Made by a program: the position numbers and the translations under genes. Shown here piece after piece: positions 9,635 through 62,110 of a stretch of DNA of 64,000 nucleotides (position 1 is the first letter of the stretch; the number at the start of each line of letters is the position of its first letter). The stretch is taken from the NCBI GenBank assembly GCA_013239625.1, contig MU053334.1:693190-757189 (forward strand), given 5' to 3'. The notes under the pieces were generated by a model that was not told where the DNA came from, ran no database searches, and worked only from the letters and a program-made list of their open reading frames with translations. The stretch is from Lama guanicoe (taxonomy: Eukaryota).

Positions 9635-10077
9635 TCACCTGGCCTTCACGTGGTTCTGTGCCCCCGCGCCCCCGCCAGCCCCGTCCCCGCTGCCCCCGCC
9701 GCTGCACAGCACCTCCGTGAGGTCATCCATGACGGCGGTCTCTTTGGGGTCCAGCAGGTTGAACTCCCGGGCGAAGAGGATGAAGTGGACGTAGAGGGTG
9801 TTCAAGTACCCCGCCCCCCCGCCAGCCCCCTCCCCGCTGCCCCCGCCGCTGCACAGCACCTCCGTGAGGTCATCCATGACGGCGGTCTCTTTGGGGTCCA
9901 GCAGGTTGAACTCCCGGGCGAAGAGGATGAAGTGGACGTAGAGGGTGTTCAAGTGTCCGTGCAGCTCCAGGGCCAGGGTCTCCTTGAAGTGGGCTGAGTA
10001 GATGTGGGCCAGCACGTGGAACAGGTACCTGCAGATCTTTTTCACCAGGGACTCGAAGGAGCTGGGGAACTCCCGGC
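9635..10077 (-). CDS. MOB2: MOB2 last coding exon (G)REFPSSFESLVKKICRYLFHVLAHIYSAHFKETLALELHGHLNTLYVHF...AQNHVKAR*, containing a 147-bp in-frame duplication
   Basis: Acceptor ccccgcAG at 10079-10078, phase 1, TGA at 9637-9635. Matches the recalled MOB2 C-terminus. Confidence 0.95.
9661..9954. repeat. Tandem duplication, 2 x 147 bp, inside the MOB2 CDS
   Basis: 9661-9807 vs 9808-9954 are identical except 9661/9808 (c/a), 9668/9815 (g/c) and 9683/9830 (g/c). Confidence 0.97.
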
Positions 10078-10611: not shown

Positions 10612-10736
10612 CGTATTTTGTGGGGAACACGTCCTCATCGGTCACCAGCTTCTGTACGGAGCTCATGACAAAGTCGACGTACTGGGGGGCCGTGCACTTG
10701 ACCTTCTTCCCCCGCTCGTCGTACCAGTAGTACTGT
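10612..10736 (-). CDS. MOB2: MOB2 exon 4 (T)QYYWYDERGKKVKCTAPQYVDFVMSSVQKLVTDEDVFPTKY(G)
   Basis: 125 nt, ccgcAG acceptor and GTatgt donor, phases 2/1 consistent with neighbouring exons. MOB-family motif. Confidence 0.97.
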
Positions 10737-11746
10737 CTGCGGGGCAGAGGGGCCGTCACACGCCCGCCAGCCCCGCGCCAGCCCCGCCCCGCCCCGCCCC
10801 GCCCCGCCGGACACGGGGCCCCTGGGCAGGGCAGCCCCTCCCGTCCTCTACGGGGCAAGTGTCGTTAGGAGTTATATCAAGAGGCCCCGAGTCTGTTCTT
10901 AACAGGGCTACAAACCAGCTTTCCCGGCGCTTCTGTGAGGCTCTGCTGTGCCTTGTCACAGGGCCTGGACCCTCAGGAGCCTCCCTGCCACCACCACTGG
11001 AAGCCAAACCCTGCACGGGGCCCAGTGGGTGGAGGGGCCTCTGTAATCAGGAACCTGGTCCCTGGAGGCCCTCCAGCGCCCCCTAGCCTGCCCCCATTCA
11101 AGGGGCGGGCAGGCAGTCCCCAGGTGAGAGAGGGCCAGAGTGCTTGGGACGTGGACACCCTACGTAAGCCCAGCCGGGAAACCAAGCGAGTCTCCTGGTT
11201 CACAGCAACCGGCCCTGTCCTCTGGCACAACAGGCAGACATCTGGTAGGCTCCGGCCGCACCACCACCATCCCCATGCTCACCCCAACCTGCTCCAGTCT
11301 TCCAGGCAGAAGGCCCTGCACCTGCAGGCTGGCTCAGGAGCAGGAGGGTGGGTGGGGGAGGGAGGGCACGGGTCTGCTGGGCAATGACCCACATGGGCGC
11401 AGGCTGCTGTGGTCATCCAGCCAATGAGTGACCAGAGCACCCTCTTCCGTGGCCTAGACCCCAACCCTGTGGCACCTGTACCAGCCAGAAAGGGCTTCAC
11501 ACAGACCTCCACCTGGCGCCCCTACCCATTTAGCTGATTTTACTGGCTTCAAAACTGGCTTAGACCAGGTCCCCCCATCACCTCAACCTTGCACCTTGCC
11601 CAGGCTGGGACTCCAGGCTGGCTCTGAACACCCCGCCCTGACATATGAGCTCACCAGCACCCCTGGGTGACAGCCATGAGGACTCACCTACACTCACCAC
11701 TTTGCCAGGCCTGCTCTCAGGACAGCAGGGTCCCCATCTCATGGCC

Positions 11747-11790
11747 AGCCTGACTCTAGCCAAAAGAAGCCTGACTCTAGCCAAAAGAAG
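11747..11790. repeat. 21-bp tandem duplication (agcctgactctagccaaaaga x2)
   Basis: Perfect direct repeat seen in the sequence. Confidence 0.95.
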
Positions 11791-17744: not shown

Positions 17745-17838
17745 GTGTTGCACACGGCCATCGTCTGGCACGCCTCTCCCGTGCAGAATTCTGAGATGGT
17801 GCTGTACTGGAGGTTGACGTGGTGGAAGAACGTCGTGG
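17745..17838 (-). CDS. MOB2: MOB2 exon 3 (T)TTFFHHVNLQYSTISEFCTGEACQTMAVCN(T)
   Basis: 94 nt, ttccAG acceptor and GTgagg donor. Contains the Cx4C zinc-ligand pair of the MOB fold. Confidence 0.97.
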
Positions 17839-18592: not shown

Positions 18593-18753
18593 TGTTGCTG
18601 GCCAGCCACTCGTTGAGGTCGATCTCCCGGGGCAGCACCACCAGCTCCTTGAACCCGAAGTCGGTGATCCTGGACTTGGTGTACTCCGGCTCCAGGTACA
18701 CCTTCTTCTCCTCGGCGGCGGGCTTCTTCCCGTTGGGCTTGGCTTTAGACTTC
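18593..18753 (-). CDS. MOB2: MOB2 exon 2 KSKAKPNGKKPAAEEKKVYLEPEYTKSRITDFGFKELVVLPREIDLNEWLASN
   Basis: 161 nt, tccgcAG acceptor and GTgcgt donor. Carries the MOB hallmark V.LP...D.NEWLA.N. Confidence 0.97.
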
Positions 18754-25636: not shown

Positions 25637-25746
25637 CTGAGCACTTTGCCGACTGCCTGAAGCACCATTTTGCAGCTGAGTCCGGCTTTGGGGGCCTGGC
25701 TGAGCAGAGCTCGATCTGCGGGGAGGCCGCTGTGATCTCCCAGCAT
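25637..25746 (-). CDS. MOB2: MOB2 alternative first coding exon (long isoform) MLGDHSGLPADRALLSQAPKAGLSCKMVLQAVGKVL(R)
   Basis: Resembles the recalled N-terminus of the long human MOB2 isoform (MLGDH...CKMVLQAVSKVLR). Donor AG|GTgaat is phase 2, matching exon 2. CCAAT at 25849-25853 lies upstream. Confidence 0.88.
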
Positions 25747-27149
25747 GATGGGGCAGCGCGGAAGTGGGCTGGGAAAGTGGGAGCCACAGCCCCAGCAGCC
25801 GCTCCCTCCCTCCCTGCGCAGCCCTGACACGGAGCCAGCCACCGCCGGCCAATGAGGGCAGGCAGGGGGAGAAAGGAGGGCTCTCTGGGGGCCAAGCAAA
25901 CAGCTGCTCCTTTTACAGCTGAGGGCCAGCCAAATCTGGTTCAAGGAGGGAGCTTCTCGATTGCCTTTTCAAAGTGGCACCGCGCGGGTGCCGTGTGGGG
26001 CAAGGCCACAGCCGTAGGGACGGACACAGCCCACAGAGGGGACCCATTGGCGAGGCCCCAGGGTGGAACTGCGGGAGTCCTTTGAGGGGGCCGGGGAGGT
26101 CCTCTAAGAGCTGGTGAGATGAGAGAGGACCAGGCAGGGCAGCCAGGCTGCAGGGAGACTGTCCGTGTACCATGGAGCGGGGACGCAGACCTGCGGCAGG
26201 TCTCCATTCAGACTGCCCTGGAGAGACAAGGCTGGCTGGCTCCCAGGCGTCCCGGGCAGGTGCCCAGCCAGCACCAGGCAGAGGCTGTTCCTGTCACCAC
26301 CACGAGCAGCATCCCCTTCTCACCACACTGGATGCAGGATGACCCTGGGCGCATGGCGGGGACCCGGGTACATGCTGACTTCTCAAATGAGTCAGTTTTA
26401 CCAACTGTGACGTCATGTCGTCGTCATCTTCCTTCTGTGCCCCGAACTTGCAAGTCCAGATGGTGTCTGGTGAGGAGCCTCCGGGGGGTGGGGACACTCT
26501 CCCTCTGCACAGCTGTCCATCCTGCAGCAGAGGAGGAGGGCCACCACCAGCCTCACCCCTGCGTGCGGACTTCGCCCACCCAGGTTTGCCCACTTTCCTC
26601 ACACTTCTGTCAAACTGACACAAGAAGCAACAGGGGTTTCCAAACAGTGGACGAGTTCTGACGTATGGGCAGAGATGAGGCCCAACAGACACGGGTTCCT
26701 GGCAGGGAGGCAGCACTGCCAGTTGTCACACAGCTTGAAATGTTTCCCTCAGTGACACACCCAGGTCCAAAGAGAGCGCAGAGAGGCTCCCCTGGAGGAC
26801 AGACGCATCAAGCCTGAAAGCACACCCGGGGGCACAGCTGGACGCCCTGCACTGGAGGCCCCCGTACGTGGCTGGTGTCAGAACACCTCTCTCCTCGCCC
26901 CCTCGGTCTCCCCTTTACATCTGTGACTTCCAGCGAAGGACACAGACACGGGTGCTCACGTCCAGCCAGGCACCCTGCCTGCTGCCTGAGCCTCCAGGAA
27001 GCCAGCCCCAGACAAGCACATGCCCCTGGAACACCTGCTCCAAAGGAGTAGGAACCAACACGCAAGTCCTCGTGCACGAACGTGCAAGCCGCCAAGAGCA
27101 CAGTCCAGGGAAGGTGACGACAGGTGTCGGCAGTAGTAGTGGTGCTTAC

Positions 27150-30100
27150 ACCTCAAAAGACGCCAACAAGAAAATGAAAAGACTGGAAGAGCTCTGCAAG
27201 CCATATACCGATACAGGACTTCTGCCCACAACAGAGAAGATACTCTGTAAGGTATCTCCCATAAGACTACCAGCTGATTTCTCAGCAGACACTCTGCAGG
27301 CCAGAAGGGAGGGGCACCCAAAGGGAAGAAAGGGAAAAACCTACAACCAAGAATACTCCACCCAGCAGGGCCCTCGTTCAGACCTGACGGAGAAAACAGA
27401 AGCATCACAGACGAGCAAAAGCTAAGAGCTCAGCACCACCAAACCAGCTTTACAGCTGACACTAAAGGACCTCCTCTAGAGGAGAAGAAAAGGCCACGAC
27501 TAGCAACAGGAAAACTACACAACGGGGAAAGGCTCACGGGGAAGGGCAAATACACAATAAAGGCAGGAGACCATCCACACGCAAGGCCAGTGAGGAGGTG
27601 AACGACCAACATGGTGAAGTCATCTCTATCGGTACAGCTAAGTGACATTCGAAACAATCAGATGTAAAATGTGGTATCAAACGCTAAAATGCATTTGAAA
27701 TCAAGAGATCAGCAATTTAAACAAGCACACATGTATACAGACTGCTACACCAAAACCTCGTGGTGACAACAAGACAGATCTATCATAGATACACACACAA
27801 AAAAGGAGAGGAATCCAAACATAACACTAAAGACAGTCATCAAATCACAAGAGAAAAGAACAAAAAAAAGAAAGAGGGGGGAAAAGACCTACAAAAACAA
27901 GTCCAAAACAATTAACAAAACAATCGTAGGAACATACATATTGATCACTACCTTAAATGGAAAGGGGCTAAATGCTCCAACCAAAAGACACAGACAGACT
28001 GGCTGCATGGATGCAAAAACCAGACCCATATGTACACTGCCTGCAAGAGACTCACTTCAGATCTAGAGACTGAAAGTGAGGGGATGGAAAAAGGTATTCT
28101 ATGTAAATGGAAATCAAAAGAAAACGGGGGTAAGAAGACATATCAGACAAAACAGGTTATAAAACAAAGACCGTTACAAGAGACAAAGAACGCTACATAA
28201 TGACCAAAGAAACACTCCAAGAAGACGACGTAGCTATTGTAAATGCGTATGTACCCAACATACGAACACCTCGATCTAGAAAGCAGATGTTAACAGACAT
28301 AAAGGGAGAAGTTGACAGTAACAGAGTAGTGGGGGACTTTACCATCCTACTTACATCAATGGACAGATCACCCAGACAGAAAACCAATAAGGAAACACAG
28401 ACCTTAAGTGACAAATTAGACCAGATGGACTTAATTGATACTTATAGAGCATTCCATCCAAAAGCAGCAGAACACACGTTCTCAAGTGCACATGGAACAT
28501 TCTCCAGAACAGATCACATGCTGAGCCACAAAACATGCATGCCTCAGTAAATTTAAGAAAACTAAAATCACATCAATTATCCAACCACAGTGCTTTGAGG
28601 CTAGAAATCAACTACCAGAAAAAAAACGGCAAAAACACAAACACGTGGAGGCTAAACAACATGCTGTGACTTCAAAAAAGAAATAAAAACACCTGGAGAC
28701 AAATGAAAATAGAAACACGACGATCCGAAACCTCTGGGACGCAGCAAAAGCAGCTTAAAAGGGAATTTACAGCAACACAAGCCTACCTCAGGACACAAGC
28801 ACAAGCTAACACACAACCTAAACTTACACTTACAGCTACTAGAGAAAGAAGAACAAACAAAACCCAAAGTGAATAAAAGGAAAGAAATTATGAAGATCAG
28901 AGCAGAAATAAATGAAATAGAGACTAAAACACTAAAGAAAAGAGCAATGAAACAAAAAACTGGTTTTCTGAAAAGATAAAATTGATAAATCTTTAGCCAG
29001 ATTAATGAAGAATAAAAGGGACATGGCCCAAATCAATAAAATCAGAAACAAAAAAAAGTTACAACTGATATCACAGAAATACAAAGGACCATAAGAGACT
29101 ATTCCGAGCAAAATGGACAATGTAGAAGACATGGAAGATTTCTTAGACAGGTACAATCTCCCAAGGCCGAACAGGAGAAACAGACACTAGAACAGACCAA
29201 GTGCCAGCACTGAAACTGAATCAGGAATTTAAAACTCCCAACGAACCAAAGTCCAGACGGTTTCACAGGCAAATTCTACCAAAAATTTAGAGAAGAGTTA
29301 ACAACCATCCTTCTGAAACTATTCCAAAAAGCTGCAGAAGGAACATTTCCAAACTCATTCTATGAAGCCACCATCACACTGATACCAAAACAAGACAAAG
29401 AGATCACACAAACAAGAAAACTATAGGCCAGTACCACTGATGAACATGGATGCAAACATCCTCAACAAAAAACTAGCAAACTGACTCCAACAACGTATTA
29501 AAAGGACCATACACCATGATCGAGTGGGATTTATTCCAGGGGTGCAGGGATTTTTCAATATCTGCATTACAAACACATTAACAAATTGAAGAATAAAAAC
29601 CATATGATCATCTCAATAGATGCAGAAAAAGCTTCTGATAAAATTCAACATCCATTTATGATTAAGAAAAAAAAAAAACTCTCCAGAAAGTGGACACAGA
29701 GGAAACGTAACTCCACATAATACAGGCCATATATGGCAAACCCACAGGTAACATTACACACTCAATGAGGAAAAGCTGAAAGCATTTCCTCTACGACCAG
29801 GAACAAGACAAGGATGCTCACTCTTGCCACGTTAATCCAACATAGTTTTGGAAATCCTAGCCATAGCAATCAAAGAAGAAAAAGAATAAAAGGAATCCAA
29901 ATCAGAAAAGAACAAATAAAATTGTCACTGTTTGCAGATGACATGGTATTATACATAGAAAACCCTAAAGGAGCAACCAGAAAACTACTAAAGCTCATCA
30001 GTGAATTCAGAAAATTGCTCGATACAAAATTAATATACAGAAGTCTGTTACATTTCTATACACTAACAACAAACTGTAAGAAAGAGAAATTAAGGAAACA

Positions 30101-32030
30101 ATCCCATTTACCATCCCATCAAAAAAAAAAAAAGAATAGAATTTTTAAGAAACAAAAAAATAAAATACCTAGGAATCAACCCTACCTAAGGAGGCAAAAG
30201 ACCTGTACTCCGAAAACTCTTAAGACACTGATGAAAGAAACTGAAGATGACACAGAGAGAAAGATACACTGTATTCTTGGATTGGAAGAATCAACATTGC
30301 TAAACTTACCATACAACCCAAGGCAATCTACAGAGTCAATGCAATCCCTATCAAACTACCAATGACAGTTTTCACAGAACTGGAACAAAAAATGGGAGAC
30401 TGACCTAGGAAAACATTGCTATTAGTATGGAAACACAAAAAAAGACTCCAAATAGCCAAAACAATCTTGAGACAGAAGAACAGAGCTGGAGGAATCATGC
30501 TCTCTCACTTCAGACTACACTATAAAGCTACAGCAATCAAAACAGTATGGCACCTGCACAAAAACAGACACACCGATCAATGGAACAGGACAGAAAGCCC
30601 AGAAATAAACCCACCCACTTGTGATTAATTCATCTACAAGAAAGGAGGCAAGAATATACAATGGAGAAAAGATATTCCCTTCGGCAAGCGTTGTTGAGCC
30701 ACATGTAAATCAATGAAGTAGAACACTCTCTCACATCACACACAAAAATGAACTCAAAAAGGTTTAAAGACTTAAATATAAGACAGGATACCATGAACCC
30801 CCTAAAAGAGAACACAGGCAAAACATTACCTGACATAAATTGTAGCCATGTTTTCCTAGGTTAGTCTCCCAAAGCAACAGAAATAAAATTAAAAAATTAA
30901 CAAATGAGACCTAATTAAACATATGATCTTTTACACAACAAAGGAAACCATAAACAAAATGAAAAAACTTACAGACTGGGAGAAAATATTTACAAATGAT
31001 GCAACTGACAAGGGCTTAACTTCCAAAATATACAAATAGCTCATACAACTCAACAACAACAACAACAACAAATCCCCAAACAACCCAATCAAAAAACGAG
31101 CTGAAGACCTAAACAGATGTTTCTCCAAAGAAGACATACAGATGGCCAACAGGCACATGAAAATATGCTCAGTATCGCTAATTATCAGAGTACTGGAAAT
31201 CAAAACTACAATGAGGTATCGCCTCGCACCAGCCAGAACGGCCATCATCAAAAAGTCCATGAACGATAAGCGCTGGAGAGGGCGTGGAGAAAAGGGAACC
31301 CCCCACACTGTTGGTGGGACTGTAAACTGATGCAACCACTGTGGAAAACAGTATGGAAATTCCTTTAGAAACTAGAAATAGACTTACCGTATGATCCAGC
31401 AATTCTACTCCTGGGCATGTATCCAGAGAAAACTGCAATTTGAAAAGATACACGCACCCCAGTGTTCACAGCAGCACTATTACAACAGCCAAGACATGGA
31501 AACAACCTAAATGCCCATCAACAGATGAAAGAATAAAGATGCGGTGGTGTCTCATACTAAGTGAAATCAGTCAGACAGAGAAAGATAGACACCACATGAT
31601 ATCACTTACATGTGGAGTCTAAAAAATGAGACACGTGAACTTATTTGCAAAACACCTAGGATGGAATACTACTCACACATAAAAAAGAATGAAACAATGC
31701 CATTTGCAACAACAAAGATGGACCCAGAGATTATCATACCAAGTGAAGTCAGAAAGAGAAAGAAAAATACCATATGCTATCACTTATATGTGGAATCTAA
31801 AATAAAAGGACACAAATGAACTTATTTACAAAACAAATAAACTCAGACATAGAAAACAAACATGGTTACCAAAGGGGAAAGGGCAGGAGGCATAAACTGG
31901 GAGTTTGAGATTAGCAGATACAAGCTACTACGTACAGAAGAGATAAACAAGGTTCTACTGTAGAGCACAGGGAACTAAATTCAAGAGCTTGTAGTAATGT
32001 ATAATGAAAAAGCATCTGAAAAAGAAGTGC
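27150..32030 (+). mobile_element. 5'-truncated, disrupted LINE-1 (ORF1 3' part, ORF2, 3'UTR), antisense to MOB2
   Basis: ORF1 motif PIRLPADFSADTLQARRE; endonuclease VGDFTILLTSMDRS; RT LSLFADDMVLYIENPK; C-terminal MRYRLAPAR...HTVGGTVN. Many stops and frameshifts; A-rich. Confidence 0.95.
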
Positions 32031-61289: not shown

Positions 61290-62110
61290 GAAGCCCGGCC
61301 CGCGGCCCCGGTGCCGATGCTTCCTTCCTACCCCGCCCTGCGGCCGCCCGCCGGCCCGCGTAGACTCCGATCGCACCCGCCCGGCCCCGCCAGCCTCGCC
61401 CTGCTCTCCCTCCTCACCCGAGCCCCGCGGACGCGTTAGCACAGCTGAGTCGTTTTGCTTCTTTCCCCTCGTTTTTAAGAAACTCTTCTCTGCCGGCGTC
61501 AAAGTTTCTTCCAGAAGCAAGTTCCCTGCGGCGATCAGCGAGAGCAGCCGCAGTCCGACCTCCCCGGCCGCCCGACACCCAGCGGCGAGGTGTGGCCGGC
61601 GCGACCTGGGCCGGCCCCCGGGACGCGGCGGCCCCGCGCGGGCGCCGGCGCTGCAGGCCGGCGCGGCCCTGCTCCGGTCCCGGCGCCGCGACCCCGCTCT
61701 GAGGAGCCGCCAACCCCGCGCCGCGACCCCGGGGGACGCCCCTCGCCGGCCCGGCCCGCTCCGCCCGGGCCCGGTGCCCTTGACCGGAGCAGCCCGCGGC
61801 GCGCCCCGTCGCCCTTCCCGCGGCCCGCCCCGCCCGCCCGGCCGCCCGACTGCCCGACTCACCCCATGAGCCAGTCCATGGCTGCGCGGGGCCCGCCGCG
61901 CCCGCCGCCCGACTCGCTCGGCCCTCAGCCCGCGGCGGCGGCGGCCGGAAGTAAACACTCGCTCGCTCACTCCCACACGCGCGCCGCTGGCGCCGCCGGA
62001 AGTGACGCGCAGGGCGCCGCCTGCTGGGAGATGTAGTCCCGGTGGCCCCGCCCACTCGCCTGCGGCGCCCGGGTCCCCGGGGAGCTGTTCCTTCGCAGCC
62101 CGGCTGTCCC
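61290..62110. promoter_or_regulatory. MOB2: CpG island and MOB2 main promoter
   Basis: Very dense CpG. ETS sites CCGGAAGT at 61945-61952 and 61996-62003, ZNF143/THAP11-type ACTACATCTCCCAGCAG on - (62021-62037), GC box at ~62044-62053. Confidence 0.92.
61863..61879 (-). CDS. MOB2: MOB2 first coding exon, short isoform MDWLM(G)
   Basis: gcagccATGG Kozak context; ATG GAC TGG CTC ATG GG|GTgagt; phase 2 joins exon 2 to give MDWLMGKSKAKPNGKK, the recalled MOB2 N-terminus. Confidence 0.93.

Follow-up and report, generated by a model that had tools for sequence, protein, structure and literature searches.

The 64,000-nucleotide stretch of contig MU053334.1 from the guanaco, Lama guanicoe (hereafter the window), raises the question of whether the last exon of MOB2 has gained a 147-bp in-frame tandem duplication in this animal, or whether the second copy was added when the genome was assembled. 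MOB2 is described as a regulator of the NDR1/2 kinases in the text available from PMC6627106, and that available from PMC5857600 connects the loss of MOB2 with a disorder of neuronal migration. In the window, five MOB2 proteins matched five exons by tblastn, with canonical AG/GT ends, and the translation of the last exon matched the Mob1_phocein family (PF03637) with 109.4 bits, against a cut-off of 27, in two stretches. The last exon reads through both copies of the repeat on the minus strand without a stop. The coding exons are as follows.

9635..10077, minus strand: last exon of MOB2, coding part (443 nt with the stop codon), AG acceptor
10612..10736, minus strand: MOB2 coding exon 4, 125 nt, AG/GT ends
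17745..17838, minus strand: MOB2 coding exon 3, 94 nt, AG/GT ends
18593..18753, minus strand: MOB2 coding exon 2, 161 nt, AG/GT ends
25637..25746, minus strand: opening coding exon of the long isoform (110 nt), with a GT donor
61863..61879, minus strand: opening coding exon of the short isoform (17 nt), with a GT after it

Summing the exons gave 310 amino acids (aa) for the long isoform, or 261 aa with one unit removed, and by the same exon-length arithmetic the short isoform, which uses the 17-nt first exon at 61879, has 279 aa, or 230 aa with one unit removed. The MOB2 identity, the reading frame, and the gain of 49 aa (279/310 instead of 230/261 aa) that a sequence-only reading of this DNA had proposed are thus borne out by the Pfam match, the exon mapping, the stop-free exon, and the exon sums. 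Some 36 kb separate the first coding exon of the long isoform from that of the short one, which is the more upstream of the two and is set in very GC-rich surroundings (GC-rich stretches at 61592-61926). Between the two alternative first exons, an AT-rich, A-skewed segment at about 27000-31500 (GC 0.37) holds broken frames on the plus strand, antisense to MOB2, which we take to resemble pieces of the endonuclease and reverse transcriptase of LINE-1 ORF2. A prokaryotic promoter scan of the window was empty, and is irrelevant to MOB2.

A TRF analysis of the 64-kb window found the tandem repeat at 9662-9954, with a period of 147, 2.0 copies, and 98% matches. Comparing 9661-9807 with 9808-9954, we found 144 of the 147 positions identical, the mismatches being at 9661/9808, 9668/9815, and 9683/9830, and 124 nt (9684-9807 and 9831-9954) forming an identical core with no synonymous differences. 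The unit is the sole exact repeat of at least 30 nt within the window, and no N character occurs in the window, hence none between the two copies. The parts of the repeat, with upstream and downstream given in transcript order, are listed below.

9808..9954, minus strand: upstream copy of the 147-bp unit, whose last 23 nt hold all three mismatches; suspected redundant contig end
9661..9807, minus strand: downstream copy of the 147-bp unit, which runs into the normal C-terminus and retains an Asp as in camel MOB2
9808..9808, minus strand: junction base T, matching neither flank, in a Tyr codon that stands in the register of an invariant His (camel His174)
9809..9844, minus strand: G-quadruplex-type motif (regex) in the Gly-rich tail codons of the upstream copy, with 88% GC over 9808-9850
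9661..9697, minus strand: G-quadruplex-type motif (regex) in the downstream copy

All three mismatches are confined to the final 23 nt of the upstream copy, a clustering that would arise by chance with a probability of 0.003 (0.022 without the boundary base). Two of them have a G in the upstream copy and a C in the downstream copy on the minus strand, both inside G runs, which are thereby lengthened in the upstream copy. At the junction itself, the T at 9808 differs both from the C preceding the first copy and from the G ending the second, and the resulting Tyr replaces a His that was present in all 387 occurrences of the motif among the homologs we fetched. The in-frame repeat at 9661-9954, the novel Tyr joining the copies, the three differences within 23 nt of the junction, and the two C-to-G changes in G runs had all been read from the bare sequence, and each was recovered here by TRF, by the exon translation, or by the comparison of the copies. 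The ends of the unit share no microhomology in the 147 register; a three-base word that they do share is one base out of register, and a microhomology-mediated origin was rejected on that account.

The junction lies in a G-rich context that is hard to sequence. The G-quadruplex-type (G4) motif of the upstream copy contains the mismatches at 9815 and 9830 and adjoins the junction base, and the corresponding part of the downstream copy, at 92.5% GC over 9661-9700, ranks in the top 0.2% of the 40-nt windows in the 64 kb. In the text accessible from PMC13202175, G4 motifs are tied to raised sequencing error, strongly for AVITI and modestly for NovaSeq X Plus, and the accessible part of PMC12887540 likewise associates them with higher error rates. 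However, the same part of PMC12887540 also places real mutation and breakpoint hotspots at such motifs, so that a break at this point cuts both ways. About 20 nt past the repeat, the C-terminus at 9641-9643 on the minus strand reads Lys-Ala-Arg. All 353 of the fetched homologs with the tail motif end in Glu-Arg (336 in Lys-Glu-Arg and 17 in Thr-Glu-Arg), and the Lys-Ala-Arg ending may have arisen in the lineage or be one more miscalled base at this locus.

Next to the homologs of other animals, the duplicated state stands almost alone. One search scored the 7998 candidates sharing the most words, and the best 120 of its 126 matches were used. In total, we fetched 397 distinct homologs, consisting of cluster representatives plus at most 15 members from each cluster; they are not independent, as many are isoforms of a single gene. 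The segment occurred once in 387 of these, was absent in nine, and occurred twice in one; a duplicated cluster member beyond the 15 or fewer sampled per cluster could be hidden. The best match among 295 homologs was the MOB2 of Camelus dromedarius/bactrianus (P0192, XP_031304374.1), in which the segment is single-copy, as it is in the long Camelus isoform (P0327, XP_031304373.1); the single-copy state thus covers the Old World camels and more distant animals only. Camelus MOB2 is identical to the window in the MOB core of the last exon and carries in its Gly tail the same Asp as the downstream copy, whereas it differs in having a single copy, a tail four residues longer, a Lys-Glu-Arg instead of the Lys-Ala-Arg ending, and an Ile in exon 4 where the window has Val. 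Since this Asp agrees with the downstream copy at the sole mismatch visible in the protein, the changed state is placed at the end of the upstream copy. Neither form of the window's own MOB2 tail, single or duplicated, was among the proteins retrieved in the homolog and cluster searches. The exact translation of the last exon was absent from the protein collection as well, an uninformative result, since a fragment covering one exon would not be expected there. A member of the Logan set (P0363) has the expected 230 aa, but it was rejected as a match because its tail is different.

The only homolog with two copies is a partial gene model from the naked mole-rat (P0002, EHB17870.1), which has an exact 79-aa repeat of the last exon from residue 360. 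Like the guanaco repeat, it is internal to the protein, and its first copy breaks off at the beginning of the Gly tail; unlike it, the unit spans the whole exon up to the tail, and the case is known from the partial protein model alone. The protein is the only member of its cluster, and the related protein of Fukomys (P0182) has a single copy. The naked mole-rat repeat is probably an independent assembly or gene-model error, and on the protein sequence it may be read as a second, comparable break in this G-rich part of the gene, although it could also be real. A literature search, which lacked most subscription papers and supplements, found no report of an internal repeat or duplication in MOB2.

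We consider the 147-bp repeat most likely a false (homotype) duplication that arose in the assembly from an unmerged contig overlap, and probably not real DNA. This reading is favored because the mismatches are one-sided and clustered (none in 124 nt and three in 23 nt), because camel MOB2 agrees with the downstream copy at the one mismatch visible in the protein, because the break coincides with a G4 motif whose GC content ranks in the top 0.2%, because the 147-bp unit is read-sized and has no microhomology in its register, and because the segment is single-copy in camel MOB2 and in 387 of 397 homologs, with the sole repeated homolog also breaking at the Gly tail. Under it, a contig running along the MOB2 last exon would end in the G-rich codons of the Gly tail, its final 23 nt containing three miscalled bases, and the next contig would start 147 nt earlier; the mismatched ends would have been left unmerged and joined end to end without a gap. 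The guanaco would then carry an ordinary single-copy MOB2 of 261/230 aa. We infer the contig boundary, the base-call errors behind the mismatches, and the joining step from the pattern in the sequence, with Illumina read-end errors being a plausible source of the mismatches. That misassembly was at least as likely as a real duplication had been stated as a caveat by the sequence-only reading, and it is now the better-supported explanation.

The lack of an N gap between the copies weakens this explanation. In the available text of PMC9516828 (Ko et al. 2022), false duplications can produce false exon gains and are mostly separated by gaps, a wrongly filled gap occurring only sometimes; homotype false duplications are located at contig boundaries and are about one read long, as the available part of PMC8081667 (Rhie et al. 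2021) says of long-read assemblies. As so described, the guanaco repeat resembles this class in having near-identical adjacent copies that may be about one read long (147 bp, 144/147 identical), in having its mismatches confined to one end, as the edge of a low-quality contig would, and in mimicking a coding gain. It differs in having no gap, and on its sequence it is a candidate for the class, which is defined by depth and k-mer tests. The negative gaps described in the accessible portion of PMC3504050 (English et al. 2012) are similar in that adjacent contig ends go unmerged with mismatches in their overlap, but the validated cases there measure 1-43 bp versus 147 bp here. We also compared sampled 31-mers with sequencing runs. 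Of the 24 runs listed, 14 held 0.95-0.96 of the 406 sampled words, and none held more; these 14 carried four organism codes and seven study codes, 13 being marked "DNA?" and one being of unknown kind. Six of the remaining runs held 0.10-0.22 of the words, three held at most 0.03, and one was not indexed. Words found only at the junction make up 53 of 3877 distinct 31-mers, or about 5.6 of the 406 sampled. The shortfall in the runs fits a missing junction without showing it, there being too few junction words to weigh.

The main alternative is a real and recent tandem duplication, private or polymorphic and nearly neutral, produced when replication slipped, or a break was repaired with errors, at the G4 motif and leaving one untemplated base and two nearby substitutions at the junction; the protein would fold normally using one copy, with a 49-aa dangling extension. 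We regard this as improbable, though not negligibly so. In its favor, template-switch and end-joining repair can leave short untemplated insertions and clustered substitutions near junctions. There is no assembly gap, the reading frame is kept, and the MOB2 tail is variable in length and tolerant across mammals. A G4 motif is, moreover, a plausible stall site according to the accessible part of PMC12887540. However, a real event needs three changes in 23 nt versus none in 124 nt, two of which lengthen G runs as base-call errors would, and the repeat is absent from the homologs of close relatives in the fetched set. The open frame is weak evidence for a real duplication, since one in three duplications would be in frame by chance.

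A duplication that is not only real but also fixed and functional in this lineage has been suggested as well, in which a spare copy of the last bundle helix and the terminal helix on a Gly linker would allow domain swapping or alter NDR1/2 binding. We examined this with a predicted structure of camel MOB2, which represents the ortholog and not the duplicated form, and which was built from a 30-sequence alignment with a moderate mean pLDDT of 59.9. The model has helices at 168-188 and 194-209 and matches MOB1/Mob2 structures with a best E value of 3.6e-09 and TM scores of 0.42-0.50, from which the camel ortholog is predicted to adopt the MOB fold. The 147-bp unit corresponds to camel residues 175-226, so that the extra copy begins inside the long helix, and it aligns to MOB1A from Leu179 onward. 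The repeated segment is presumably H7-H9 of the MOB fold. The claim that the unit covers the last long helix and the terminal helix therefore agrees with both the camel model and the MOB1A alignment, the unit matching the predicted helices at 168-188 (from residue 175) and 194-209. A functional role gains something from this match and from H7, which contributes to the kinase-binding surface of MOB1 in the structural account available from PMC4917820. In the same source, the zinc ligands are His161 and His166, both of which the alignment places outside the unit, and MOB1B is monomeric in solution. A functional pair of extra helices is nonetheless most unlikely: the 124-nt core has no synonymous differences and so shows neither age nor selection, Tyr stands in place of the invariant His in the second copy, the start of the helix is missing from the repeated copy, the zinc-binding His residues are not duplicated, the repeat is absent from camels, and MOB1B is a monomer. 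The spare helix, the domain swapping, and the altered NDR binding proposed earlier find no support here, and the repeat is absent from the fetched homologs of close relatives. If the duplication is real, a normal fold with a dangling extension is the simplest outcome.

Another possibility assumes a real duplication that is removed from the transcript as a newborn 147-nt intron (an intron gain of the Rogers type), restoring a normal MOB2 mRNA. Its donor would be the GT at 9859 and its acceptor the AG before 9712.

9712..9859, minus strand: repeated AG/GT site, with GT at 9859 and 9712, both sites weak

The unit holds exactly one AG/GT, which its duplication turns into the two ends of a 147-nt intron with no shift in register; joining the first GT as donor to the second AG as acceptor would excise exactly 147 nt (9859-9713, minus strand). 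This length exceeds the intron minimum of about 60 nt given in the available text of PMC3265369, according to which such duplications were spliced at about 6-16% in human cells. Some homologs also behave as expected if this GT sometimes served as a donor. Directly after the DDLTE motif, 10 of the 357 homologs with the motif turn to unrelated sequence, and two more end within two residues beyond it; the switch is found in predicted models from horse, raccoon dog, rabbit, macaque, pig, blue whale, and siamang, and in one unnamed record. On these sequences, the GT after the DDLTE codons (9859 and 9712) is suggested to be either a cryptic donor or a shared assembly break, as the 10 switching homologs are predicted models that may reflect assembly breaks. 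The splice sites themselves argue against an intron, the donor being off consensus and the acceptor having a G at -3 and 11 pyrimidines of 20, versus 12-17 of 20 at the four real acceptors of the gene. The proposal also requires the duplication to be real, and we give it very little credence. The intron gain by tandem duplication in ATP2A1 (Hellsten et al. 2011, PMC3265369), as far as the accessible text describes it, is similar in having a coding unit with an AG/GT and a spacing above the minimum intron, but the present candidate has a weak donor, a GAG acceptor, and no clear polypyrimidine tract. A combined scenario, of a real and very young camelid allele born at the G-quadruplex in which a mammalian intron is emerging from the repeated AG/GT, a site that may already serve as a cryptic donor in other mammals, with some transcripts dropping 147 nt to give normal MOB2 and the rest encoding a spare helix pair on a Gly linker, is very unlikely too, if marginally less so than either the functional helices or the intron taken alone.

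If the repeat is an artefact, as we favor, it warns that an in-frame false duplication without an N gap passes gene prediction as a protein longer by 49 aa, and draft assemblies of mammals may break repeatedly at the G-rich codons of the MOB2 Gly tail. Were the repeat true, it would be the first internal repeat in a camelid MOB2 among the sequences and literature searched, and it would offer a natural setting in which to test whether duplicating exon sequence creates introns, a process that is rarely seen in mammals according to the available text of PMC3265369.

Two other short repeats were seen in the gene. A G/C-rich short tandem repeat occupies 10757-10832, immediately before exon 4 in minus-strand order, and is another place prone to base errors. 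In an intron of MOB2, at 11747-11790, there is a perfect 21-bp tandem repeat (2.1 copies, 100% matches), which may reflect either a genuine small insertion or one more short overlap.
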